Positions 4,168 to 51,997 of a DNA stretch of 64,000 nt are shown here, in pieces. The notes beneath the pieces were generated by a model. The model searched no databases. It was not told the DNA's origin and saw nothing but the letters and a program-made list of their open reading frames with translations. The DNA comes from Octopus sinensis. Taxonomy: Eukaryota. The position numbers were made by a program, and so were the translations under genes. Numbering within the stretch: position 1 is the stretch's first letter; the number at the start of each line of letters is the position of its first letter. Location of the stretch: contig NC_043017.1 in the NCBI RefSeq assembly GCF_006345805.1, positions 25,048,001 to 25,112,000 on the forward strand. Direction: 5' to 3'.

Positions 4168-4715
4168 ATATAGAAATCTATTTGCACGCACACACATCAC
4201 ATATGTGTGTATGTGTATATACACACACACACCACACACACACACACACATTACACACACATACATGCACACACATATACACATGCATGCATACATATAG
4301 ATGCACACATGCACAAATATATGTATATATTTACACACATTTATATGAAAATGGTAATGTCTAATATATGTAGTATTTTTCTGAATTTGCTATAATAATT
4401 CCTTATATTTCACTATCAAACTAAATTCAATTGATCTTGTATATTTTTTTCTCCTATATAACCGACAGATGGTTGTATGTATAGTTCAATTTACTTGTTC
4501 TTCTAATTTTGCTCGTGTTTCAGTTTGTTTTTTTTAAATATTTTTGTCATTTTTTTTTTCCTTTTCATCTTCGTCTCTTGTCCATCTTTTATTGATTCCC
4601 AGTCAGTTTTTCTTCACCGTCTCTGCTTAAAGATAATTGGAAATATTTGATTCTCCATTAAACATGTCATCACTGCTTGAGATAGAGTTATAATGTATTT
4701 CAATGTGTGTGTGTG

Positions 4716-4760
<45 letters not shown>

Positions 4761-5068
4761 TATATAATATATTTATGCATACATACATATGTATGTATGT
4801 ATATATATATATATAAATATATATATGCATACATACATACATATGTATGTATATATGTAATATATATATATATATACATACATAAATATGTGTGTGATTG
4901 TATTTATAAGTGTTTATATACATACACATACATATAAGTGTGTAATTATATAACTGTATAAACACGATATATATAAAATATGAAATATTTATTTAATATA
5001 TATATATATATATATACATACATGTGTGTATAATATATTTTTATGTGTGTGTGTATATATATAATATG

Positions 5069-5146
<78 letters not shown>

Positions 5147-5541
5147 CTGAGCTGAAACTAGAAAAAAAAAAAATATATATATATATATACACACACACAC
5201 ATACACACACATTGATCCTAACTCTGTTGAAACAAACTAACTCTTGTTCTGCTTGTTCTACTTTTGTATATCTATGTACTGCATATTGAAACAGCCACTA
5301 GCCAGTCGTATATAATGCAAACACACACATTTTCATATTCATAAATAAACCCACCATGTACATGGCTGACATTTATAATAATCATGGAATTTTTTTCATT
5401 GCATTAAATACCCTCAAGTTAACTATGATATATACATAATTAAGGATAAAATTATTAAAAGTTAATGAGTTTATCAGTGGCCAACATATAATAACTGTAT
5501 AGGTAAAAATCAATACATAAATATATAATTATATAGATATG

Positions 5542-5893
5542 ATTATAATTCAGGGCATGAGGGTATAGCAACCTTATGTTAGAGATAGACTGTCAAATAG
5601 TTGTAAACCACCTTGAATTTGCACTGCATTAGCACAATGTTGAATTCAAGGAAGATGGATAAAAAAAAGATTTCGTAAAATTATGGTTAACCTTACTGAT
5701 GAAAGTAGAGTATTTATTACTAAACCAGAAATCTGAGGATTTAGGGTCTACCATAATAATTTTATGAAATCTTTTTTTATCCATTTACCTTGAATCCAAA
5801 TTTGTGCTAATGGAGTGCAAATTCAAAGTGGTTTATATTTGTTTGACTTCTATCTCTAGCATGTAGGTGCTGTACCTTCAGTGCCCTTAATTA

Positions 5894-5896
<3 letters not shown>
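5542..5896. mobile_element. Old imperfect foldback element (~150-bp arms)
   Basis: e.g. aaaccaccttgaatttgcact versus agtgcaaattcaaagtggttt, and tggataaaaaaaagatttc versus gaaatctttttttatcca. Confidence 0.75.
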
Positions 5897-5935
<39 letters not shown>

Positions 5936-6022
5936 GAAAGTTTACGAAAATAAACAAAAGACGAAGGCAGGTGGAGTACAAACAAACAAATGTATTAGTA
6001 TACCGCTCAGGAATAGAAAAAG

Positions 6023-6060
6023 TCTTTTACGTTTCGAGCCTACGCTCTTCGACAGAAAGA
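6023..6060 (-). ncRNA. Hammerhead-like variant (core CUGUCGA) in a (TA)n-flanked repeat at about 5930-6090
   Basis: Minus strand UCUUU-CUGUCGA-A-GAGC-guag-GCUC-GAAACGUA-AAAGA; core A6 replaced; decayed second copy at about 25955-26130. Confidence 0.45.
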
Positions 6061-6194
6061 TACACAGAAAAAAACAAGGATAGAAACAATATATATATAT
6101 ATATACACACATACATATGTATATCTTGGTTATGCTTCATTTTTACTAAGTACTAACATATTTACAAAAATGGTCCATAGAAATATCCTGGGCT

Positions 6195-6592
6195 CTTTTA
6201 TTCTTTTACTTGTTTCAGTCATTTGACTGCGGCCATGCTGGAGCACCACCTTTAGTCGGGCAAATCAACCCCAGGACTTATTCTTTGTAAGCCTAGTACT
6301 TATTCTATCGGTCTCTTTTTGCCGAACTGCTAAGTTACGGTGACGTAAACACACCAGCATCGGTTGTCAAGTGATGTTGGGAGGACAAACACAGACACAC
6401 AAACACACACACACATATATACATATACATATATGGTTTCTTTCAATTTCCGTCTACCAAATCCACTCGCAAGGCTTTGGTCAGCTTGAGGCTATAGTAG
6501 AAGACACTTGCCCAAAGTGCCACACAGTGGGACTGAACCTGGAACCATGTGGTTGGTAAGCAAGCTACTTACCACACAGCCACTCCTGCGCC
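6195..6592 (-). mobile_element. SINE family B (tRNA-like head, CORE-like ccttgggcaagt, internal microsatellite)
   Basis: Reverse complement of ggcgcaggagtggctgtgtggtaag...gggttcagtccc...tgactgaaacaagtaaaag. Confidence 0.85.
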
Positions 6593-7557
6593 TATTGATG
6601 ATAGGAATGATCTTTGTCAGCACAAACCAGAGTCCAACTCTAGGATGGCCTGATTTAGTATTTTAAAGTAAAGAGGTCAATTGTAGAGTCCACTTTCTAA
6701 AAGAAACTCTAAAACTGACCTCTTTGCATTTTACAGGGTCTCACTGTTTCATACATTTTAACACTGCTTTGTTTCTCTCCTTTCATTTTAATTTGCTGCC
6801 AAAATCAATTTGGTATAAAAGCAGACTCAGATATGGTTGTGTAGTTTTGGAATCAGTTACACTGCATGGAACCTTTGGCAAGTATCTACTTCTGTAGTCC
6901 TGAACCAGCCAAAGTCCTGTGAGTGGATGTGGTAGACAGAAACTGAAAGAAGTCCTCATGTATTGTGTGTTTGTGTATGTATTTGTCTCCTTGTCTTGAC
7001 ATTATTTCAGAGTTATAAATGTGTTGCTGTCGTGAGCAATGTCACTCATTTCCAATGTTCCATAAAAATGTGTCAGGCCATAGGGAAATATTACCTTGCT
7101 TGGAAGCAGGTGAAAATTGGTGACAAGAAGGGCATTCAGCCTTTAAAAAATGTGTATCAGTGAATTCCATCCAACCTATGTCATTTCTAATCTTCTGTGA
7201 AAACTTGTTACGTCTTGCGAAATATTACTTTGTTTGGAAACAAGTGAAGATTGGCAACAGGAAGGGCATCTAGCTATGGAAAATCTGCTTGAATGGATTC
7301 CACTTAATCCATGTAGGTATGGAAAAAAGGACATTAAAATGATGATGATAGTGAAGGAGTAAAAAGTCAATTAGTTCTTTAGTGAATCACATGCGGTCCC
7401 TGGTCTCATGCATGCATACTTTGGCATAGTGTGGTCCATAGCAGCTCATTTTGCCATTGATTATCAATTGTTGTAGAGGGTTCACCGAACAAGTCACAGA
7501 CAGTTATCAGAGCAAACATAGCCTCTCTGTGTGTTTGTATGTGTATATATGTGTGTG

Positions 7558-7610
<53 letters not shown>

Positions 7611-8792
7611 AAATGCATTGTAAATAATCAACAAGTAAAAAAATGTATACATGTAATGAGTGTACGACTGAACGGAAGACAGACACAGAAAGTCCCTAAT
7701 TCTTCATCAGTTATCAACCAAATAGTAACACTCAGTTTTGCACCGTTAATGAGAAGACTGAGAACTTCCCATGCTGGCGGTCCCCGTGAAAGCCATGGAG
7801 AATATAGGACTTGAAGCAAACAAAACAACATAGAGTCGACATACGAAAGTAAAAAAAAATAAGATGATGGACAAAGGTGAAATAAATAGGAAATGAGAAG
7901 AATACAACCTTAGGGCCAAAAAGACTGGAATGGTGGGTAATGCATGTGTGTATATATAAGTCTTTTATATATGTGTGTGTGTGTATGATAATTGTTCTTT
8001 ATCTGAAGAGTTTCTAATAGGAAATTAAATATTTATGATTCCTTTTAGCCTACTATACACGTATAATGGGGAATAAATAATACCGAAAAATTTCCATTTT
8101 CCTATTTAATTATGTGTATATCATCATCATCATCATCATTTTATGTCCATTGTCCATGCTGGCATGGGTTGGATGGTTTGACCATGGCTGGTAAGCTGAA
8201 AGCCTGCACCAGACTCCAGTCTGATTTGGCATGGTTTCTACAGCTGAATGCCTTTCCTAACGCCAACCATGCCAAGAGTGTGATAGGTAGAATATTAGAG
8301 TATTTTGGCCTGATATGGTCAGTTTAGATGCCAAAGGGTTGATCAGATGGTTTGGCAGCTGCACAGTTCATAAGAGCAGAGAATGTTGTAGCAGTGTCGG
8401 AAGGGATATAGAGGTTTGTGGTGTCTTTATGGGCCACCAATTGTAGTGTTGGTTAGTGAATGAATGCTTGCTTATTTAGAGAGATGACTGTATTTTGCAA
8501 GTTGATTAGTGCATGGCTGTGTATGCTGGTATGGATATATAAGTAAATGAAATGTCCTTGATATAAGAGCAGTCCTTCAAGTATCTTGCAAAGGGTCAGC
8601 TATTCAGAGCAGAATACATTGTATCTTTAACAAAAAAAAAAAGTTTTAATCGGTGTGTCTGTTTAAAACTGGTTTTTCATTACTGCAGAAACAATTATCT
8701 TTCAGTAAAAGTCGTTGCCTATATTTTAATTGTTTTTTTTTTTTTATTTTTTGTTTGTCTTTTTGGTCTTTTTGTTGGTGGAATGAGTCTAG

Positions 8793-8805
8793 ACGTTGTT
8801 GGAAA
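8793..8805 (+). CDS. Candidate 13-nt micro-exon (DVVGK), phase 1 to 2
   Basis: T-rich tract 8730-8777, TAG acceptor, donor AA|GTCAGT; supplies the phase needed to read exon 16193-16302 in its only open frame. Confidence 0.4.
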
Positions 8806-8962
8806 GTCAGTATTTATTGAATTTGGTTTCAAAACACAGCATGATTAATCTAACATTGTGGTTCTGTGGTTTAGTATTTTTACTGGTAGGAACACGAGAG
8901 AAAGAAAGTGCAAAAAGAAAAGCCAGATCTTTGTGTATATGTGTGTTCATATACATATGTGT

Positions 8963-8997
<35 letters not shown>

Positions 8998-9026
8998 CGA
9001 GAAAGAAGCAACAAGAATGGATAGGT

Positions 9027-9117
9027 TTTTAGTACAATCGTTTCATACAAGGACAGGCTTTATTAAAAGTTGCAAAAATTACAGCATATAAACGTGTCCC
9101 GTACTCATCAGCTAAAA
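9027..9117 (-). ncRNA. Mirror copy of the hammerhead at 9306-9396
   Basis: Exact reverse complement in the left arm of the foldback. Confidence 0.75.
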
Positions 9118-9305
9118 TACATGTGAGTTCTCTAGACATCCTAGTGGTTGAGGCTATACTCATGAAGTAATGTAGATAATTAAGTAACATAAACAGATTT
9201 CCAGAACTTTAATGAACTTTGGAAATCTGTTTATGTTACTTAATTATCTACATTACTTCATGAGTATAGCCTCAACCACTAGGATGTCTAGAGAACTCAC
9301 ATGTA

Positions 9306-9396
9306 TTTTAGCTGATGAGTACGGGACACGTTTATATGCTGTAATTTTTGCAACTTTTAATAAAGCCTGTCCTTGTATGAAACGATTGTACTAAAA
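9306..9396 (+). ncRNA. Minimal type I hammerhead ribozyme (Penelope-type)
   Basis: Stem I UUUUAG/CUAAAA; core CUGAUGA 9312-9318; stem II GUACGGGACA/UGUCCUUGUAU; GAAAC 9379-9383; near-palindromic stem III ACGAUUGU; cleavage triplet GUA 9388-9390. Confidence 0.75.
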
Positions 9397-10550
9397 ACCT
9401 ATCCATTCTTGTTGCTTCTTTCTCGCTTATAATCACCCCACATTACTGTATTGTTAAAACAGTATAGTTTTTTTTGGTGCATCTAAGTTAGGTACCATAT
9501 TCAAGTAAATTCATTTAAATTAACTTGAATCTTTATTGCTTTTTGTATATATATATATATGTATGAACATATGTGTGTATATATGTGTAGGTCTGTATAC
9601 GTATATGTTTTAAATGTCAACCAGATATTGATGAAGATATTAATTCAGGACCATCACTTTCCTTAACAGACTATAATTACTAGTTTTCTGAATGCCATTA
9701 AACCAGAAATGTCATTGTCTACTTGAGAGAAATAAGTGACAATTCTTCATTCTATTAGGAACATTATGGAGTACAACTAATGTCTCTCCCTCTCTCTCTA
9801 ATGCCTTGTATAACCCAGATTTTTTAATTCTAAGCTGTTGAATGACAGTTCAGGGAACACAGCCAAATTGTTGAATAACACCAGAACAGCCCTGTTCAAA
9901 CAGAACTCTAATGAAAAGGTATTGTGGACATCCTGTCTTTGCTCGGACATTGTAGATTTGGGACTACATTATCCAATGTGTCCTTTCCTGTTTTAAGGTA
10001 GTAAGATATGAATTTGTGTAGGAATTGGCTGCTATTTCTGGAAGGTTGAGCAACTATTTAGAGATCCTACAGTTATCTCAAAATGGTCAATTTTATAGAG
10101 CACCAGAAGGGTTGGTAGATAGTGGTACTAACATTTTGTCTTAAAATAGTTAGGCCCTTCAAGCTTCAAGTAGGTTGTCAATGTCCTAGATATTTTACTT
10201 TCATCAGTTGATCCCATCAAACATGAAGTAGGTGCAAACGTATGCCCTTCACTTCCTATGGAGTAGAGGCCATCCACAACTTTGCTCTACTGTTCTGAAC
10301 TCAGGCTGTCTTTTCTGTTTCTCTCTGGGGAATGATGTTGTCTTGAGATTTGGTAGCAACAAGTCCCCTCAAATCCCAAAAGTCTTGCTTTGGATGTTTT
10401 GCAGAATACAGGATTACACATTTCTGCAGGTCAACCGTGCAAGTCTCAATATCCTTCAGTCCCTTATGTAGCAGTTTGGTTGTTGTTGCTCAGCCCTTGT
10501 GGCCAATAAAAAGAATTTATTATTATTATTATTATTATTATTGTTATTAT

Positions 10551-10910
10551 TCGCTGAGGTTGATCTTACTTTCCATCCTTTTGGGGTTGATAAAATAAGT
10601 ACACTGGGGTCAATGTAATCAACTCATCCTCTCTCCTAAAATTGTTGCCCTTGTGGCAAAATTCGAAACCATTATTATTATTATTATTATAATGAGCTGG
10701 TAGAATCATTACCACGCCGGCAAAATGCTGAGTGGCATTTCGTCTGTCTTCATGTCCTGAGTTCAAATTCTGCCACGGTCGACTTTGCCTTTCATCTTTA
10801 CAGGGTCAATGTAATTAACTAGTCCCCTCCCCTAAAATTTCAAGCCCCGTGCCTTTAGTAGAAAGGATTATTATTATTAATTATTATTATTATTATTATT
10901 GTTATTATTA

Positions 10911-10953
<43 letters not shown>

Positions 10954-11397
10954 TATTAAGGGGATTAATTGGCAGAATCGTTAACACACTGGGCAAAATG
11001 CTTAGTGGCATTTTGTCTGTCTTCATATTCTAAGTTCAAATTCTGCCGAGGTTGACTTTGCCTTTTGTCCTTTTGGGGTCAATGAAATAAGTACCAGTTG
11101 AGTACTGAGATTGATGTAGTCAACTTAACCCTTTAGTATTTAAACCGGCCATATTCGGCCAAAATATTTAATCTGTTTTATGTTCAAACTGATCAGATCC
11201 AGGCTCTCACACCTACCCTACAATGTTATTCTACATTAAGTAATTGCACCATCAAGATCTTGAAGATATGGGATAATGCATGATTAATTAAAATCAATGG
11301 GAATCAATAGGCATTATGTTTGATAGAATAATCTGAACACTAAAGGGTTAAACCCCGCCCCCAAAATTTCAGGCCTTATGCCTTTATAGTAGAAAGG

Positions 11398-11435
<38 letters not shown>

Positions 11436-11887
11436 GGTGATGAGCTGGCAGAATTGTTAGCACACTGGGCAAAATGCTTAGCAGCATTTCATCCGTCTTT
11501 ATGGTCTGAGTTCAAATCCTGCCATGGTTGACTTTTCCTTTCATCCCCTTGGGGTTGATAAAATAAGTACCATTCGAACACTAGGGTTGATGTAATTGAC
11601 TTACCTGCTTCCCGAAATTGCTGGCCTTGTGCTGAAATTTGAAATTGTTGTTATTATTAAATATGTCTTTTCTGTACGTCCCCTTTTATCAACCCTATAC
11701 TGTATGAATTTTATGTAACTATTGTTGTTGTAGTTGTGGTTTATTTTTCTGTGTTCCCTCATCAATATAATTCTGGGAAGTTTTGAGATAAATGTATATT
11801 TCATCATGTCATTTATCAGATGTAATCTCTTTGCTGTTTCTCATCATTGTAACCTGTCCAACCCACTGTATTTTCCCCTCATTAATA

Positions 11888-11922
<35 letters not shown>

Positions 11923-13550
11923 GATTCATTCCGCTGAGGTCAACTTTGCCTTTCATCCTTTGGGGGTCGATAAATTAAAGTACCAGTTGTATACTGGGGT
12001 TAATGTAATCGACTGACCCCTCCCCTCCATATTTCAGGCCTTGTGCCTATCGTAGAAAGGATTAGGATTATTAGATTCATATGCATTTTGGACAAAATGC
12101 TTAGTGGTATTTCTTCCAGTTTGGTGTTCTGAGTTCAAATTCTGCCATGGTCGACTTTGCTTTCATCCCTTCAAGGTCGATGAAATAAATATCAGTTGAG
12201 CACTGGGTGGAGGTAATGAGGTATCCCCACCATTGTAATTTGGTGTTAGGAAGGGCATCCAGCTGTAAAAACCATGTCAAAACAGACACAAGAATATGAA
12301 GTAGTCTTTTGCCTGGCAAGCCATGCAAGCGATGCTGGCCTGGAAGGAGGATGTTAAATGATGATGATGTGGTGTGCTGGCAAAATTGTTACCATTCCAG
12401 ACAAAATGCCTGTTGGCGATTTCTTCCAGCTCTTTATGTTTTGAGGTCAGGTTTGCCTTTTGTCCTTTTGGGGGATCAATAAACTAAAGTACAAGTTGAG
12501 TACTGGTATTAATCAACTAACATCCTCCCACAAAAATCGCTGGCCTTATGCCAAAATAAGAAATAATTATTACTATTATTTTTATTATTATTAAGACAGC
12601 AAGCTGGCAGAATTGTTAGCACAGCGGGCAAACTGCTTAGCAGCACTTCTTCTGTCTTTATGTTCTGAGTTCAAATTCCACTGAGGTCGACTTTGCCTTT
12701 CATCCCTTTGGGGTCGATAAATTAAGTGCCAATTGAACACTGGAGTCGATGTAATTGACTCCTCTTCCCACACATTTGAGCCCTTTTGCCTCCAGTAGAA
12801 AAGATTATTATTATTATTATTATTATTGAGTGAGAGAGAAGCGCATGCCATCAAAGTGACACTGGGATACAAATATATGAAGCTCAATATACCCATCATG
12901 ACTACCCATCTGATAAGGGCACATGCACCACAACCATATGTACATGGCATGGTGATCTTATATTAAGGTAAACAGCACATGACCTTGCAAGTGGGGCCCA
13001 GTTAGAATTTTCTTCAGGTTGAGTAGCCCATCCAGCTCGAAAGCTCCCTAAATAAGGTTTGTTTAAGGATGATGAACGAAACACTCGTTTCCAGAGGTGA
13101 ATTATTCAAACCCCAAAGACTTCCTCTCAGCACATGTCTGTGATGCCCCCCCACTACGTCTGTTCATGATCAGAGATGCACATATTGTCAGCCACCAAAC
13201 TAGTGATGGTCAAGCAAATCTGTGGTATTGAGCAGAATATTTGCTGTAGCTCATCTTTTATACCATGACAAAACAATGTACATAACACAGCCAAATATTT
13301 TAAGATCAAAAGCCATGGGAGCCAGTGCCTGGTACTGCATCAGGGCATTTATTATTATTATTATTATTGGTGGATTAGCAGAATCATTTGTGCTGGAAGA
13401 ATTGTCTTGCAATATTTCGTCTGAGTCTTTACGTTCTGAGGTCAACTTGACTTTCATTCATCTAGGATCAGTAAAATATAGTACCAGTCAAATACTAGGG
13501 TAGATGGTATCAAACTAACCCTCTCCTCTTGAAATTACTAGCCTTGCAAC
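10551..13550 (+). mobile_element. Cluster of about nine co-oriented family A SINEs separated by (TTA)n
   Basis: Copies start near 10551, 10692, 10958, 11434, 11925, 12090, 12375, 12593 and 13370. Confidence 0.85.
11129..11347 (-). mobile_element. TTAA-type MITE family 1, inverted relative to 43-262
   Basis: TTAA on both sides, same TIR, highly similar to 43-262; splits a family A SINE. Older copies at about 28385-28577, 35708-35895, 39128-39342 and 40630-40815. Confidence 0.85.
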
Positions 13551-13889
13551 TAAACAGTTGTCATCATCATCATTTATTATTTCCTAAAATGACTTGTTTT
13601 TGGCCTCTCTACTCCATATGAAAACTTTTTTTCTCTTTCCTCGGTGGTTACTATAGCAACACATTAGTACGTAATTAATTAAGATACCGAAAATAGCATC
13701 AAGATAATCAAGATTATTAGAATATAGTGTTTTCTCCTCTCTTTATCCACCCCCTCTCTATGTTTTGTAACAATAATAGTTTGATGTTGCTTACTAAGAT
13801 AAGGGTTTTTTGATAAGATAGTCAGAAGAGGAAGGGTCGACCCCAAACTTTTTTCAGATTGAGTGTTATGTGATTGATGGTCTGCTTAA

Positions 13890-14098
13890 CCCTTGCCTTA
13901 CCATATTTCTACTGAACTATACTGCTTTTCTTTCAATAAATTTAGAAAATAATGGAAGATTTAGTGAAGTAACTTATTAAATTGATGTCGGAATCAAATT
14001 AACATGAAATTTTGATAGATTTTAATTTAGATCACTATGAAACTGGAAGTTTTTAGCATAGAACCAGGACAGTCTCAGATAGTTTGGTATCAAAAGGG
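13890..14098 (+). mobile_element. TTAA-type MITE, family 2
   Basis: ttaa-ccct...aaaggg-ttaa; related to 45050-45250, 49503-49723 and partial copies near 49170-49298 and 61605. Confidence 0.75.
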
Positions 14099-14192
14099 TT
14101 AAACGTGCCAAGCTGTATCAGCCTTTGCCATTCCCTTGGATGACATCAATGGTGTGGTGAGAAGAGGCTGGTATGCATGGGCGACTGCTGGT

Positions 14193-14597
14193 CTTCTATA
14201 AACAATCTTGCCTGGCCTTGTTCCCTGGAGAGGAACTTCTGGGTGCAATACCTGTTTCTTTACTACCCACAAGGGGCTAAACACAGAGGGGACAAACAAG
14301 GACAGACATAGGTATTAAGTCGATTACATTGACCCCAGTACGTAACTGGTACTTAATTTATCGACCCCGAAAGGATGAAAGGCAAAGTCGACCTCGGCGG
14401 AATTTGAACTTTCATCCTTTCGGGGTCGATAAATTAAGCACCAGTTACGCACTGGGGTCGATGTAATCGACTTAATACCTATGTCTGTCTTTGTTTGTCC
14501 CCTCTGTGTTTAGCCCCTTGTGGGTAGTAAAGAAATAGGTATTGCACCCAGAAGTTCCTCTCCAGGGAACAAGGCCAGGCAAGATTGTTTATGGAAG
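14193..14597. repeat. Foldback of a SINE 3' half plus its flank (189-bp arms 14193-14381 and 14409-14597)
   Basis: Arms reverse complementary with about 6 substitutions; 27-nt loop; partial third copy of the flank at 14605-14644. Confidence 0.9.
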
Positions 14598-14953
14598 CCC
14601 AATTTTGCCTGGCCTTGTTCCCTGGAGAGGCTGGGTGCAATACCATGGTCATTCATGACTGAAATGAGTCTTTATCCTTTAGTCCTTGGTGGCCATGTGA
14701 GAGAGAGAGAGAGCATGTTGGGGTTTGAACCTCTGTCAGTTTATTAAACGATTTTCTTTTGGATTTGGTTTAGTGGAGGTGCATCTGTTTCTTTGTTTGT
14801 CAAGCAAAAGCATTATGACTGTAGATATGAACAGTATTACAGGATGTGTCTTTAGCTATTTTTGTTGAGGGTTATTAACTCTGATCAGGGCTGAAGTGTT
14901 TCCTGCTTCTAAAGTGGAATCCTGATGTTTCCAATGTTATTTTGGCAGTGTTT

Positions 14954-14989
<36 letters not shown>

Positions 14990-16192
14990 GTGCTGCTGAT
15001 AGCTTTCTATTTGATTTGAAGAAAAATATGCTATGAAAATAATGAGATAACATGTAATACTCAGCTTGTTTATTTTATTTTACTGCGACAATAAAGCTTC
15101 CTCTCTCACTCGCTCTTTACATATGCATACATAGATACATACATATATATATAAATCCTTAAATCCTTAAAAATGTTTTAGCCCAAAGGCTATATGTATA
15201 TATATATATATTTACAAAAAAAAGATTTTGCAAAAAATTCTCGATACAGTCGCAATATTTGAAGAAAGATTTCCTTAAAATAAACATTATTAATTATATA
15301 ATAAGAAAAAACTTCAAACAGAACTTTCCAAAAGATTCATGTCATTCTGTTATTTGAAGAAAACCTTTCTTCAAATATATATACGCATACTCATTCATAT
15401 ATACATATGTATCATTTTGCTATTTATTAAAATTATATATAATTATACTCAAATACATACATATATATGTATTTTTTATATTTTTTTTAAATATGTACAA
15501 ATTCATTTATACATACACACATATATATATATGTATATGAAAATAAATTCTAAGGACATATTAATGTTTATCGTTTACATTTGCTTTTATTGATTATGAA
15601 TTCTAATAAAAAAAAAAGTCAATTGTTTTACTAATTTCCATGTTTCCTGTTTATTTGTTTTCTGTATTTACTTATTTTTTTGTTTGTTTATGTATTGATA
15701 AATCAACATTCCAATGTATGTACACTATTTGCAATTTGCATTTATGCTAAATCTGTGAGAATTTTTTTGTATTAAATTTATTTACTTTTTTGAGTAATCT
15801 AAGTTTTTTTTTTTGTTTTGCTATATGTATATAAACTCATCCCATACTTCCACATGCATTTTCAATTCAATTGATTGATAATTATGTAAAATAAAACTTG
15901 ATTAAATATGCAAAACACACACTAATGCATACATGCACTCTCAAATTATAAGCCACATCCAAAAATACAATAGGATCCAGAGGTTTGTTAAATGCAGTCC
16001 TTCTGTTTTATCATACTCGAGAAACACTCCAACATGAACTAGGGAGATCCTTGTTGCGACACACTGATGCATCGAAAAAACTGATCGCTTCTCTTAGCAT
16101 GCATGGTACATACTATGACACATTCATTCTTAATATATTCCAGCAGATTTGAATGTGAATATGTTAATTCCTGTTGTATTTCATGTTTACAG

Positions 16193-16302
16193 AACATCTT
16201 CTCCTTTCAGGCAGTCTGTGTTGACAACACACTCAACATCATTAATACAAGGAGACTTTGAGATACCAGTGTTTCAACCTGGTTGTGTCTCTTCAGTCAA
16301 AG
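16193..16302 (+). CDS. Candidate 110-nt cassette exon (TSSPFRQSVLTTHSTSLIQGDFEIPVFQPGCVSSVK), phase 2 to 1
   Basis: Acceptor tcatgtttacAG, donor AAG|GTACTC, open frame, unique sequence. Confidence 0.5.
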
Positions 16303-16945
16303 GTACTCCAGATCAAATAAATCTAAACAAGAATGGTAGCTTTTGTTTATAGAATTCAGTACACAAAGTCTTTGTTGATGTGTTCCAAGCCGATGATAAA
16401 ATGTGTGCCTGGAGGACAGTGAGAATCAGAACAATGACCTACCGTTAATATTGGTATGAAAAGTCAATCTAAGTAATTATCTCCATAAACTGCTCTAAGC
16501 CATAGTGGTCTAGCTCTGAAAGTTCCAAAAGTATCCTGTATCTGCCTTCTTTCCTGGCCCCAAACAATCCACACTCTATGGGACAGTTGTTGCAACCAAG
16601 GCATTTAAAATCTCAGATTGATTGGTCAGCAGGAGTTATCTCATATGATTTCTTGTCGTGGACAATATCACACGCCTTATGAATTTGTGTGTGTCTGTAT
16701 GTATATGTGTATGAATGAAGCTGATGATTCATTCCATCATCACTCTGTTTCTCGCTGCGTACGATCCTTCAGGTGGAAAAATAATGATGGTTATTGAATA
16801 CTCTTCCTCTTGCTTGTACACCCAAAATGTGTGTGGTGTATAACATATTTTGTAAATGTTTATCAGTTCATAGTATTTACAGACCTCAACTATTACTTTA
16901 AAAGGATCAAATTTGTTTGTGTAACAAGCAAAGTTTGAAAATATA

Positions 16946-17843
16946 TTGGGTTGAGGAATAATTAATGTGCGTGTTTTTTTTAAATTTAAAAATAGACGCA
17001 GAAATAAAACACCTTGACAGAATGTTTTATGTTTTTTGGAAGAATTTTTCGCGCTATGTGATAGTGTTTTGATTTTTTAATTTTATTGGTTTTTTTTCTA
17101 TTTTCAGATCATTAAAATGGAATGTCAAGTGGACAAAACTGAGCATTTTTGACACCATTTGCTTTTTGGATTTAACCAAGGTGTTAAACCTACCAAAGCT
17201 GCATGTGAGATTTGTGCTATGTATGGAGAAGGAGCAATTCCTGAAAGTACCACCCGCTGTTGGTTTTCATGCTTCAAAAATGGGAATTTTTACCTCGAGG
17301 ATGGCTCACACACACCGGTCAATCAAATGAGTTCGATGAACCTTGCCCATTGAGTGAAGGTGGTTCACCACAATTTTTTTTATCACAATCTGCTCTGCCA
17401 ATTCTCTGGTCATTGGCAGATTTTCTTGAAGAAGTTGATTATCGCTCTTCATTGAACTCAGTTGATTGACCGTTGTGTGATCCATCCTTGAGGTAAAAGT
17501 TCCCATTTTTGAATTGTGAAAACCAATGGTGGGCAGTACTTGGAGGCATTGCTCCTTCTCCATACACAACACAAATCTCATGAGCAGTTTCGGCAGGCTT
17601 AAAACTTTGATTAAATGCAAAAAGTAAACACTGTCAAAAATGCTCGGTTTTGTCCACTTCACATTCTATTTTAATGATCTGAAAATACACAACAATCAAT
17701 AAAATGAAAAATCAAAACATACTATCTTGTAGAGCCCAAAAATTCATTTTTAAATAACTTAAAACATTTTGCCAATGTATTTTATTTTTATGTACATTTT
17801 TAAATTTGTAAAAAAAACGCTCATGAATTATTCCTCAACCCAA
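16946..17843. mobile_element. Mariner-derived non-autonomous element built from two inverted 5' halves
   Basis: TIR ttgggttgaggaataatt / aattattcctcaacccaa with TA on both sides; decayed mariner HTH (LLFGFNQG..AACEICAMYGEGAIPESTTRCWFSCFKNGNF) on + and a homologous copy on -. Confidence 0.85.
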
Positions 17844-18479
17844 TATTTACTGAATTTTCTGTCCTTTGATGATATTTAGGACCCACCCTGAATGTGTGTG
17901 TGTATGTGTGTGTCTCAATGAAGCTTATACTGATGGTAAATGCAAAAGAGGACTAAATTATTTTATTAACTGGCATAGGTCATTCAAATTGTACATGTTG
18001 ATAGAAAAGCCTTCTTCTATACAAAGGTCCTTCACAACATAGTCTCTGTTATAAGTGATGCATTTGTGCTATCAATTTACATGTGCATTATTGTATCTGT
18101 TTCACGGCCACTTCTTTCTTGTCTTTGTCATCAGATCATTGTCCCCCAAAGACTGTCTTTCATTAGTCTGAACAGGTGGATGCTGGAAGGCACCAGGTCT
18201 AGTCTTTATGGTGGATGGGAGACTATTTATCACCCCAATTTGCTGAATCCCCTGATTTGTGGTCACATACTGTCATGATGAATGTGGGTCATTTTTCAGA
18301 TTCCCGTTTGGTCTCTTCCTCTGTCTTCTCTAAGCTTTTTGAGTGTCTCAATGTACAACTTGTTCATTGTGCAACCCTGTTCCAAAAACAGACAATGACT
18401 CCCTTGTCAGCCCCCAAAACAGCATGGCTTTCCATGTTGATCACTGGCTCTTGAATATTTTAGGCCTTAGATAATGGGT

Positions 18480-19400
18480 GTGACACGGCCACATTTTGTC
18501 TTCTGTCACCAGAGTGAGCAAAATAAATCCTGTCTTCATCGGGTTCAAATACTTCCAGCTAATCAGAGCATATTTCCACCCTTACTAGGTTCCCATCTTA
18601 GCACAAACTTTCCAATACCTAGTCTTCTGCCATCTTCTGTAATACATTGACTGCAGTCCATTTGTGCAGCAAGCTCATGGATAGTGTCTTGTCTGTCTGC
18701 ATGAATCACCTTGTGCACTTGCTGGCGATTCATGTCATTAGTTGCAGCTGATGATCTCCCTCTGCACAGTTTGTCTTCAGATGCTGGTTTTCATATACTA
18801 AGACTTCATTTCCAGATCATAAAGATACAGCCACATTTCATCTCCTGTCGGCCATTTGAGGAAAATAAACCCCGTCTTCACTGGAAATCTGATCAGAGCA
18901 GATTTCCATCCTTCCCTTCTTCAAACCTGATGTCATCTGCCGAGGTACCCCACTTGGCACACACATTCTGATACCTAGAGTTTTCCACCATCTATAATGT
19001 ATAGGCTACAATCCAGTTGTACACAGCAAGCTCATGGATAGTATCTTGTCTGTCTGCACAAATCACGTCATCCATTCACTGGTGATTCGTGTCAGTAGTC
19101 ACAGCTGATGATTTCTCGTTGCATAGTTGGTCTTCAAATGCTGATTTCCCTGTTTTTAAGCTTCACCTATCTTCTCACATGACTCTTATCAATGGTGTCA
19201 TCTCTTACCAACTTGTAGCCTTCTGTAAATGTCTGACGACAGCCTGTGTCCCCCCTTCGTCAAGATCTCAATGATTGCAAATTGCTTCTGCTTGGAACCC
19301 GTTATTTGCTTGTCATGGAAATCAGGGAGGTGATCTCTCTACCAACATGTGCAATTTGAACAACTTATATCAGTTTATAGAGAAGTTATATACCTACTTT
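18480..19400 (-). pseudogene. Decayed mariner transposase with an internal ~360-bp duplication
   Basis: Minus translation EDKLCRGRSSAATND..VHKVIHADRQDTIHELAA, GKFVLRWEP (WVP motif), LVTEDKMW (IVTGDETW motif); 18660-18810 repeated at 19020-19170. Confidence 0.7.
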
Positions 19401-19735
19401 CGTATTAGTATCAGCAGAGCTCTTGTATGGATGCTGGTTGGTACATTTTGTCAGGTGATGGCTGTGTCGTGAGAGACATCTGCATGTCAGGTCATCGTAA
19501 TGCATGCTTTCACAGCAGTTGAGTGTCCAGTTATAAACTAGCGTGAGGTGACTACTGGAAACTACTTCAGTCACTGGTTTGAATTAGTTTCTAGCTATAG
19601 ACTTTTCCTGATAAACAGCTACCCACAAGTCTGTAGGGCTATAGGACTTTTCTCTTAGGTAATTTTGCAGTGAACCCAGACACAAACCGGAATATTTCTA
19701 TGCTCTTGTGCAAACATATAAATACACACACACAA

Positions 19736-19782
<47 letters not shown>

Positions 19783-19863
19783 CACACATATACACACATG
19801 CATGCAATATAATTTAGATGAAAATCTGTTTTGCAGACCTTCATACATAGACCTGGCTGGTCT

Positions 19864-19911
<48 letters not shown>

Positions 19912-20501
19912 ATAGACATAGTTTTGGGTAAACTTCAGATTTCTCCATGTTCTCTTCTCTTCTCTTTTCTTTCTCTCTCTCTTTTTTTTTTCCAATATAT
20001 AAATTTTTTTCTTCTTCCACCAAACTCTGCCCATCTGTTTAAAACACTAACTGTTTGGGTCCTTCAGGTACAAAGAATTTCTTGTGGGATATGACCCTTA
20101 ACCAACTGAAGTTGAAGGGTAAGTCACCCTCACCCCTGTGTTGTGTTTCAATACCCTTTGTTGCCAGGTTTCTTTAGTTGGAATGTTTTTTATCATTTTG
20201 CTTTGTAAAAACTATGTTACTGTATTATTTCATTATTTCTAGCCCTTGCCCCTGTTTGTTCATCTCTTTTTGTTTTTTTTTTTCCGCTCCCCGCCAACCC
20301 TAGACTCCACTACAAATTACACTGCACATTTTTTTTTTGGCTATTTTGTGAATTTAAACATTTTTTTTTTTCCTGCTCCTTGCATGTTTGTTGTGTTTTT
20401 GTTGTCGATGTTGTTACCACATTGCTATTGCAATAGAGTTCTTATTTTTGTTCATTTCTATTTTATTTCATTCATTCATTTATTTTTGGATATTTATGAA
20501 G

Positions 20502-30895: not shown

Positions 30896-30943
30896 GTAAT
30901 AAAACTAGATCAGTTTTGTATGAGTCCTCATCACCTAAGTTTG
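30896..30943 (+). CDS. Candidate 48-nt symmetric exon (GNKTRSVLYESSSPKF), phase 1 to 1
   Basis: Branch-like ttaCTGAC at 30868-30875, tttttAG acceptor, consensus donor G|GTAAGT, frame-preserving. Confidence 0.7.
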
Positions 30944-49858: not shown

Positions 49859-50067
49859 TTGACAAAGCTGACCCGATAAACACAGGATGTCACCAGCCAC
49901 GAACTTTGCCAGACGTTGTTTATACCGAAAGTGGTTCTCCTCCGATGGAAAAGCATGCCCAACATCATCCCATCTGCAGCAAATCTTGGCCAGAAGTGGA
50001 GGCCCGCAGGCTAATCCTGCACGACAATGCTGACAACAGTTGTGACACTGTAAACCAGAACATTTAA
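49859..50067 (+). CDS. Terminal coding exon (VDKADPINTGCHQPRTLPDVVYTESGSPPMEKHAQHHPICSKSWPEVEARRLILHDNADNSCDTVNQNI*)
   Basis: Branch-like CTAAT at 49833, acceptor ttattttcAG, phase-1 entry open to TAA 50065-50067, clearly GC-richer than flanks. Confidence 0.8.
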
Positions 50068-51997
50068 AGGATGGCCATTTTTGAAGTCTTCATTGGCATC
50101 AGTTTCTCTCTCTCTCTTTCCTCTCTTTTCCTTCCTCTTTCACATCACTCCAGCCCCACCCCTTCAAAACCTTTTTTTTTTTGCCCCCAAATTTTGTGTA
50201 CGTTATTTTTGTACAGTCATTTTTGTTGTCTTTATTTAAATAGACATTTTAACCTCTCTTTTTTTTTTTTTTGGTCTCTGTATGTGCGAGTGAAAAGTAA
50301 ACTCTGGATACAAGCGAATTTGTTTATTTGTTGTATCGAAGGTTACAACAATAACAACAATAGCAACATCACGCACATAAACCAATGAAAATTTGCATGT
50401 GTGTGTCGACAAAAAAAAAAAAATTATATATATATATATATATATGACATAACATTGATATTACATGCATTGATAACATGCATTATTTGTAATTTTTAAC
50501 TTTTTTTTCTGTGAGTATATGCACGGCTGTGTGCTTGTGCGTGCGTGCGTGTGTGTGTGTGCATGCATGTATGTGTTTTCCTTGGGATTTGTCTGATAGA
50601 CGTGCATGGGGTGGGTGGGGTGCTTACTTTGTCCAGCGCGGTGAGCATGCGTACTTTTGTTGCAAGAAACTTTAAAAAAGCAAAAAGACAGAAACCAAAC
50701 CAAAAATACATATATATAATATATATATATATATGACATAACATTGATATTACATGCATTGATAACATGCATTATTTGTAATTTTTAACTTTTTTTTCTG
50801 TGAGTATATGCACGGCTGTGTGCTTGTGCGTGCGTGCGTGTGTGGTGTGCATGCATGTATGTGTTTTCCTTGGGATTTGTCTGATAGACGTGCATGGGGT
50901 GGGTGGGGTGCTTACTTTGTCCAGCGCGGTGAGCATGCGTACTTTTGTTGCAAGAAACTTTAAAAAAGCAAAAAGACAGAAACCAAACCAAAAATACATA
51001 TATATAATATATACATATATATATGTATATATATGTATATATATATATATATGTAATGTAATGATTTACTTAATTTATCCATCATTAATCATTGCTTAAA
51101 GTTTAGTATTATATTGGCAAACTCTAAATCAGCCTTCATTCCATTAGTCTAACACCTGTATGACGTCAGATTGTGGTTGCACTCCCCAATAATATATACG
51201 CAAAGATATAGATATGTGTGTGTGTGTGTGTAGGTACGTATATATGTATGTATATATAGATGTATGTTACGCACACAAAAGCAACGTGCAATTAAAAGAA
51301 TGTTATTTGTTAAAAATAAAAAAAGGTAACTGTAATAATGAATTTTCCTTGGCGGTCTGTTGTGTTCTATGTACATAAAATAATAATAATAATTATTATT
51401 ATTATTACTACTACTACTACTGTGAGAATAAATTTCAAGACTCTGAGAAAATGTATACATGTATGTGCGTGAATATATGCACATATATACACACACACAT
51501 ATACATACATATATATTCATATGGTTATATACATATATATATAGGAAGGATCCATATACACGCATATGAATTTATCTGTATATGTACACACACATATCAA
51601 TATGCACATATGTATGTGTGTGTATGTTTGCATATGTGTACATGTATATCTATATGTATATATAGGTGTGTATCTGTATATAGAATTTATGCGTATATTC
51701 CTATATATATATATATCTGTGTGTGTATATATGTGTGTGTGTGTGTGTGGTGTGTGTGTGTGTGTAACTATGTGTATGCATATTAAATATACATGTATGT
51801 AGATGCATCTCCATTATCACTAATCACTGTTTATACTCATAGCACTAACGATTTGCTGCAGCAGAAATATTTCCCAAGAATATCTGGAATATGGTATGAC
51901 AAGCTTGGTAAAAGACTCTTCACCAGGAGAAACAACTACAAGAAACCCACATTTAATATCATTGTGTTTTGTTTTTTTGTTGGAAATTTTTATTTGT

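Follow-up and report, generated by a model that had tools for sequence, protein, structure and literature searches.

A perfect inverted repeat with a hammerhead ribozyme motif in each arm lies within an intron of a ZDHHC9-like gene of Octopus sinensis, which raises the question of whether such a structure serves the host gene or records the arrival of a mobile element. We addressed this question in a window of 64,000 nucleotides (NC_043017.1, positions 25,048,001 to 25,112,000 of the forward strand; all positions below are those of the window), for which a first-pass annotation had proposed a regulatory role for the foldback. Our analysis indicates that it is very probably a recent head-to-head insertion of a Penelope-like element (PLE) in a (TA)n run of the intron, likely produced by twin-site priming and likely inert for the host.

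Two element copies in opposite orientation form the foldback

Self-comparison of the window confirmed that the perfect 212-bp foldback is real: two arms of 212 nt each, at 8992-9203 and 9220-9431, are 100% complementary across a 16-nt gap. Alignment of family loci placed these arms in a larger insertion that extends from approximately 8996 to 9545, in which the right copy bears an extra tail of ~115 nt and the 16-nt 'loop' at 9204-9219 is element sequence as well. The extent of 8992-9431 first given for the foldback thus holds for the palindrome, but the element continues to 9545 and its tail had been overlooked.

On the left, a (TA)n run (8967-8995) forms one half of the target site, and its final TATA also matches the short end of the element; the same flank is found at nearly all family ends. 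The left copy (8992-9203, minus strand) is an inverted, 5'-truncated copy of the element 3' end that stops at the family short end, here of the T-type, and joins the right copy through 1-nt microhomology at 9203. The right copy (9204-9545, plus strand) is a direct, 5'-truncated copy of the element 3' end (pLTR sequence) that ends at the long tailed end and matches several other loci at 100% over its 342 nt. Its extra 5' part is the unpaired spacer (9204-9219, plus strand), which starts at the margin of a junction hot spot coinciding with a native 10-nt palindrome, and its tail (9432-9545, plus strand), the element sequence between the short and long 3' ends, is present on one arm only and is followed by the (TA)n run that forms the right half of the target site (9546-9560).

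Because the copies lie head-to-head, the antisense arm leads on either strand and a single sense ribozyme follows, and the earlier statement that the antisense arm is made first whichever strand is transcribed is correct. Equally sound was the recognition of a Penelope-like pLTR hammerhead in an inverted, 5'-truncated arrangement; the locus belongs to a family whose parent encodes RT and GIY-YIG, and both arms are 5'-truncated 3' ends. The locus itself is an ordinary young transposon insertion.

A young, high-copy family with Hydra-clade motifs

The arm is a high-copy repeat, for which all 40 candidates scored, of 445, were 100% identical over 212 nt, and in four DNA runs the summed short-read depth over the arm was thousands of times that over the flanks, a comparison that yields no copy-number value. 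The family has two fixed 3' ends, a short end and a long end ~115 nt further, both joined to (TA)n. Exact-pattern counts across the genome returned 963 short ends (740 of the G-type, 223 of the T-type) and 1010 read-through ends, a ratio close to 1:1 and ~2,000 such element ends in all. The extra G that follows 740 of the 963 exact short ends (e.g. L001, L006 and L007) is absent from the element template; telomerase-like CG stuttering was rejected as its source, only one copy genome-wide having a further repeat. Nine foldbacks, the one in the window included, have both arms reaching nearly the same junction with at most 30 nt between them, and 13 of 98 5' ends on contig C1 cluster at its native 10-nt palindrome, a count in which the arms are not independent. 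The hot spot 5' of 9204, besides being a palindrome, is possibly the pLTR transcription start. Identity to at least 40 other copies makes the window copy too young to show selection, and identity to dozens together with nine near-identical foldbacks means that nothing about it is locus-specific: hundreds of head-to-head insertions of the same young Penelope-like element are nearly identical to this hairpin. Three non-inverted copies, L005, L017 and L044, start no more than 10 nt from this hot spot, which lies immediately 5' of 9204.

Translated copies identify the parent as a 4.65-kb tandem unit with RWK, DKT, MGS, YRDD, CxCX5C, VIY..YIG, CxxC and CxH motifs. Four loci (L040, L046, L050 and L052) are tandems with a period of ~4.65 kb, and the family also comprises inverted copies and the tail. 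The RT motifs precede VIY..YIG in the same sense direction in parent copies, with a longest open stretch of at least 890 aa (L044); most parent copies contain frameshifts, which are frequent at homopolymers and may be assembly errors. RWK is accompanied by DKT, in place of DKG, in translations of L040, L046, L050 and L051, a single cysteine lies between VIY and YIG, and most copies carry CKCRIKSKC, CQLC and CVH, with no CCHH motif. In tandem copies the tail end lies ~55 nt before the ORF start codon, and the short and long ends are both upstream of that codon. Two long asparagine-rich inserts occur in the parent ORF (L040:4288-7159 and other long copies), and at L047:1-4150 (reverse orientation) a tandem array of ~490-nt units, partly inverted, adjoins an element copy.

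A homologue search with the parent protein returned 981 proteins at E <= 1e-10 among 8000 scored, and the top homologue carries PF01541, which we take to be GIY-YIG. Pfam searches gave no significant match for parent ORF pieces or for 24 ORFs of the window, and PDB and homologue searches with two non-coding ORFs returned nothing. The combination of RT and GIY-YIG, partial tandems forming pLTRs, inverted 5'-truncated copies and an optional tail is that of EN+ Penelope-like elements.

Within these elements, PMC8557442 gives as traits of the Hydra clade RWK, DKT, a CxCX5C linker, no cysteine pair in GIY-YIG, CxxC, CxH and (TA)n targets, all of which recur in the octopus family, at whose 3' flanks (TA)n is likewise the target. 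The same paper describes an RT with a C-terminal GIY-YIG and a type I hammerhead near the 3' end, again as in the octopus family, and its Penelope-13_HM and Penelope-17_HM share with that family a G-U pair at ribozyme position 10.1-11.1. Hydra elements are stated there to be generally shorter than 3 kb, whereas the octopus unit measures 4.65 kb, with asparagine-rich inserts and ~1.7 kb between stop codon and tail end; the stem II loop of the ribozyme is 40 nt in the octopus family as opposed to 3-10 nt in the Hydra ribozymes listed. The 2.5-kb Hydra-1_Obim of Octopus bimaculoides, from the same paper (PMC8557442), appears by eye to be a different family, with another N-terminus and ribozyme. 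The family is a young, high-copy Penelope-like retrotransposon with Hydra-clade motifs, and its comparison with reference Hydra RTs was by eye.

The hammerhead motif and its predicted fate in the host transcript

One hammerhead motif lies at 9306-9396 on the plus strand and its mirror copy at 9027-9117 on the minus strand, the latter being sense on the minus strand only and antisense in the host transcript. The description of two mirror-image hammerheads is therefore accurate in that each arm has a motif, but each strand has one sense ribozyme, not two. Type I features are present, namely a CUGANGA core (CUGAUGA here), GAAA, stems I and II and an NUH triplet (GUA), with a 6-bp stem I, a stem II of 10 bp that has a single bulge and a loop of 40 nt, and a predicted cut after 9390. 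Stem III, ACGAUUGU, is self-complementary and forms an 8-bp duplex with two G-U pairs; the intact core, stems I and II, near-palindromic stem III and GUA triplet noted for each arm can be read directly in the sequence.

The core pattern has two matches in the window and none in 100 shuffles. Rfam run on the window found no family at the gathering score and, at a loose threshold, generic hairpin matches only, with no hammerhead. On its own, the 91-mer yields a fold that is not superior to those of shuffles (z 0.29). The pair closing stem II (10.1-11.1) is G-U where G-C is usual, and no family copy has another base at 11.1; both core halves are identical in 80 of 91 fetched ribozyme copies. At the stem III site, 850 family copies have another base than the window copy, and the palindrome is perfect in 99 of 100 among the matches listed. 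The window copy has the weaker variant of this stem, with a predicted -5.8 kcal/mol compared to -10.0 for the perfect palindrome. Non-LTR retrozymes (bioRxiv 10.64898/2026.07.22.740005) are likewise type I hammerhead repeats, short, without coding capacity and with a relationship to PLE pLTRs, but they are direct tandems with at least two ribozymes per strand, whereas the octopus locus is inverted with one motif per strand, and we rejected this class for it.

The predicted fold energy of the duplex at 8992-9545 is -401.5 kcal/mol, versus -5.5 for the fold of the ribozyme. The antisense arm would come first in the host pre-mRNA and pair with the single sense ribozyme, which is predicted to be masked and to have no dimer partner in that transcript; the whole would constitute an ordinary repeat-type ADAR substrate and be spliced out. 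Minimal metazoan PLE ribozymes are reported to be inactive as monomers and weak as dimers in vitro (PMC4209133), and a PLE ribozyme of this type to be protein-assisted (PMC11167929). The ribozyme motif is likely a part of the transposon that stays silent in the host intron. As for the long intronic duplex put forward as an ADAR substrate, a duplex of the kind that ADAR edits is indeed predicted, but the regulatory role attached to it is unsupported. Intronic repeats undergo editing in coleoids (PMC9068888), and this duplex could plausibly share what would be an ordinary fate for repeats; editing sufficient to open it would likely also strike adenosines of the ribozyme core.

We also considered whether the ribozyme cuts the template in vivo, leaving 5' truncations at 9391, and rejected this candidate. 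Among 74 rows inspected by eye, from a pattern that samples part of the truncations, there was no spike at the cut site: three lie exactly at 9391, five at 9388 and five at 9373, and many rows have indels or internal deletions. Insertions primed downstream routinely run through the cut site, which, together with the lack of a truncation spike, agrees with the uncleaved RNA described as the main template in PMC11167929.

The insertion lies deep in an intron of the host gene

The terminal host exon at 49859 is a 100% match to an O. sinensis protein labelled palmitoyltransferase ZDHHC9. From 25 mapped proteins, a set in which three of the 18 members of the host protein cluster were not included, plus-strand exons were placed at 812-959, 20068-20118, 30896-30943, 43164 and 49859, the last four of which comprise two small cassette exons and two alternative last exons and yield many C-terminal isoforms. 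The nearest supported exon upstream of the insertion is a 6-nt alternative micro-exon (4469-4474, plus strand), the only site in the window that matches a two-residue insertion in isoform proteins; it extends the C-terminal tail of the ZDHHC9-like protein, and the same insertion is found in the relative P0003 (77% identity over the last exon) and looks conserved. Downstream, the next supported exon is the alternative 51-nt exon at 20068-20118 (plus strand). The foldback is therefore deep in intron 4475-20067, and the supported exons closest to it are 4.5 kb and 10.5 kb away.

The 13-nt AG...GT motif described 186 nt upstream of the foldback exists (8793-8805, plus strand), but as a micro-exon it is unsupported, being absent from all 21 isoform proteins that cover the region (of 25 retrieved), and its inclusion would shift the frame to an early stop; it is possible as an exon of a minor or NMD-degraded isoform. 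Other features of the window include an 84-nt AG...GT exon-like stretch at 9835-9918 (plus strand), 290 nt after the insertion, which has a host-frame stop and is found in no isoform protein; related SINE-like repeats that contain (ATT)n runs and resemble one another at 70-85%, clustered at 10490-12000; and a near-identical direct duplication with a period of ~290 nt at ~50480-50960, just after the last host exon.

We consider it very unlikely that the foldback is a self-masked intronic ribozyme and ADAR substrate that regulates its host through unmasked cleavage or through inclusion of the 13-nt micro-exon. Such a switch would draw on a duplex that is predicted to form and to cover the whole ribozyme, on a plus-strand host gene that is alternatively spliced in the region, on a 13-nt motif with a long U-rich tract that is one of three filter-passing motifs on the plus strand of the window, and on the editing of coleoid intronic repeats (PMC9068888). 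However, the copy is identical to dozens of others and one of nine near-identical foldbacks, too young to show selection; each transcript has a single sense ribozyme with the weaker stem III, of a dimer-dependent type that is inactive as a monomer (PMC4209133) or protein-assisted (PMC11167929); and the frameshifting micro-exon appears in no isoform protein. A host-regulatory role of the foldback is unsupported, its youth and anatomy make it likely inert for the host, and it is the family-level evidence on integration that carries the interest.

Short and tailed ends pair in head-to-head insertions

All 55 G-type short ends on contig C1 were fetched and 54 parsed, with L105 dropped because it gave no alignment; an earlier locus sample was biased to tailed seeds and serves as a lead only. 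An inverted partner was present at 45 of the 54 parsed short ends and absent at nine. Among the 45 inverted insertions, 43 pair one short with one tailed end, the others being one complex tandem and one insertion cut by a gap. Head-to-head arrangement with an exact read-through end was found for 30 of the 55 short ends, and no short/short or read-through/read-through head-to-head pair occurred among the 55 short and 63 read-through ends of this contig.

This pattern bears on two readings of the palindrome itself. The first, a chimeric long-read assembly artefact, could appeal to short-read contigs, none of those listed spanning the junction or the flanks and all stopping at the (TA)n run, and to gapped alignment at the palindrome centres of some other loci. 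We nonetheless regard an artefact as highly improbable because the same asymmetric architecture recurs at 43 of the 45 inverted insertions; at the window locus the arms are asymmetric in the family-typical way, with the short end on the left and the tail on the right, (TA)n borders the insertion on either side, and neither flank is the other in inverted form, whereas a strand-switch chimera would mirror the flanking DNA too. The second, a DNA transposon of the MITE or foldback type, bearing terminal inverted repeats and duplicating a TA target, would account for the length and inversion of the arms, the high copy number and the TA flanks, but its probability is close to nil: the two ends differ by the tail in those same 43 insertions and are thus not identical terminal inverted repeats, the position of the inner ends ranges over kilobases, and each arm derives from the 3' end of an RT/GIY-YIG unit, which is found as direct tandems too.

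A reconstituted Poseidon PLE cuts and extends both strands in vitro and starts at two internal sites that bound its tail (PMC11167929). For the octopus family, we favour a mechanism in which the element protein would cut both target strands, one break end would prime at the long site and the other ~115 nt further 5' at the short site, both primings would copy the same uncleaved RNA, and the two cDNAs, having stopped independently or at the same 5' end, would join through short microhomology. In our judgement, priming of the two break ends at two fixed sites of a shared RNA is somewhat better than an even proposition, and its fuller form, with a dimeric protein priming both (TA)n break ends at the two sites on a single uncleaved RNA, lies just above even.

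With respect to the template, arms of C1 insertions were concordant at 688 subfamily-diagnostic sites and discordant at 17, against an expectation of 314 for independent templates; these sites are linked, so the count overstates independence, and it left out one hypervariable 49-nt stretch. Shared variants would look alike whether a single RNA molecule or two RNAs from the same donor locus had been copied, or whether gene conversion had acted between the arms, and the latter two possibilities take the smaller share of probability that the other readings leave.

With respect to arm length, the short-ended arm was deeper in 16 of the 45 insertions, the tailed arm in 11, and 18 were about equal. 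The 16 with the deeper short-ended arm were non-nested, two of them (L069 and L112) with a tail-only partner, and since neither arm contains the other in these cases, neither can be a simple copy of the other. Unequal insertions were no older than equal ones (0.54 versus 0.52% private substitutions, P 0.66) and their arm lengths were uncorrelated (rho 0.08), which argues against slow erosion of perfect palindromes, though not against immediate deletion.

The main competitor, which we hold to be possible but doubtful, is fold-back copying, in which priming occurs at the long end, the cDNA self-primes, a cut at the short-site TATA resolves the product, and asymmetric deletions at the centre yield unequal arms. 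It would equally produce the variants shared between arms and the equal depth of 18 insertions, the clustering of 13 of 98 5' ends at a native 10-nt palindrome speaks for it, and both of its steps have been put forward before: PLE palindromes were attributed to self-priming in PMC3846280, and resolution by the endonuclease was suggested for the tail in PMC8557442. Against it, the 16 non-nested insertions, including the two with tail-only partners, would need deletions of up to 3.4 kb on one side, the age of unequal insertions is no greater and their arm lengths are uncorrelated, and junctions of equal depth are not, overall, enriched for native palindromes (mean 6.0 versus 5.5 nt).

Comparison with other elements

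L1 twin priming, in which a single RNA is primed from the two target ends and microhomology joins the cDNAs, leaving an inversion, offers a close parallel to priming at two fixed sites on one RNA. The second site in L1 varies and the inverted piece does not overlap the first, whereas the octopus site is fixed and the arms usually overlap.

Poseidon PAc of Anolis carolinensis (PMC11167929) resembles the octopus family in having two fixed 3' ends that bound a tail, AT-rich targets, and a pLTR hammerhead upstream of the start sites that insertions read through. It belongs to another clade and has a tail of 30-40 nt rather than ~115 nt; in the octopus family, unlike PAc, both ends lie upstream of the start codon, and TATA/ATAT target matches occur just past both ends, whereas PAc starts are described as non-homologous to the target. 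Penelope elements of Adineta vaga (PMC3846280) share head-to-head inverted pLTRs, an optional tail on one arm, junction palindromes and asparagine-rich ORF inserts with the octopus family, but they are low in copy number and were explained by self-priming, whereas the ~2,000 octopus ends favour two primings.

Implications for PLE integration

The origin of the tandem and inverted structures of PLEs, and of their tails, is named as an open question in PMC8557442, and a single PLE is described as reconstituted in vitro (PMC11167929). That the tail is often confined to one end has been published as a qualitative pattern; we found no paper giving the present counts in the literature searched, which covered few subscription journals. 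In a recently amplified family with ~2,000 ends, these counts favour twin-site priming on one RNA and name its exact start sites. The family also implies that a genome from a group noted for heavy A-to-I editing contains hundreds of long insertions able to form near-perfect duplexes. If correct, twin-site priming would explain the inverted pLTR, the one-sided tail and the identical arms in one step and would weigh against the view that PLE palindromes arise mainly by self-priming, and the octopus Hydra family would constitute a natural record of PLE integration.
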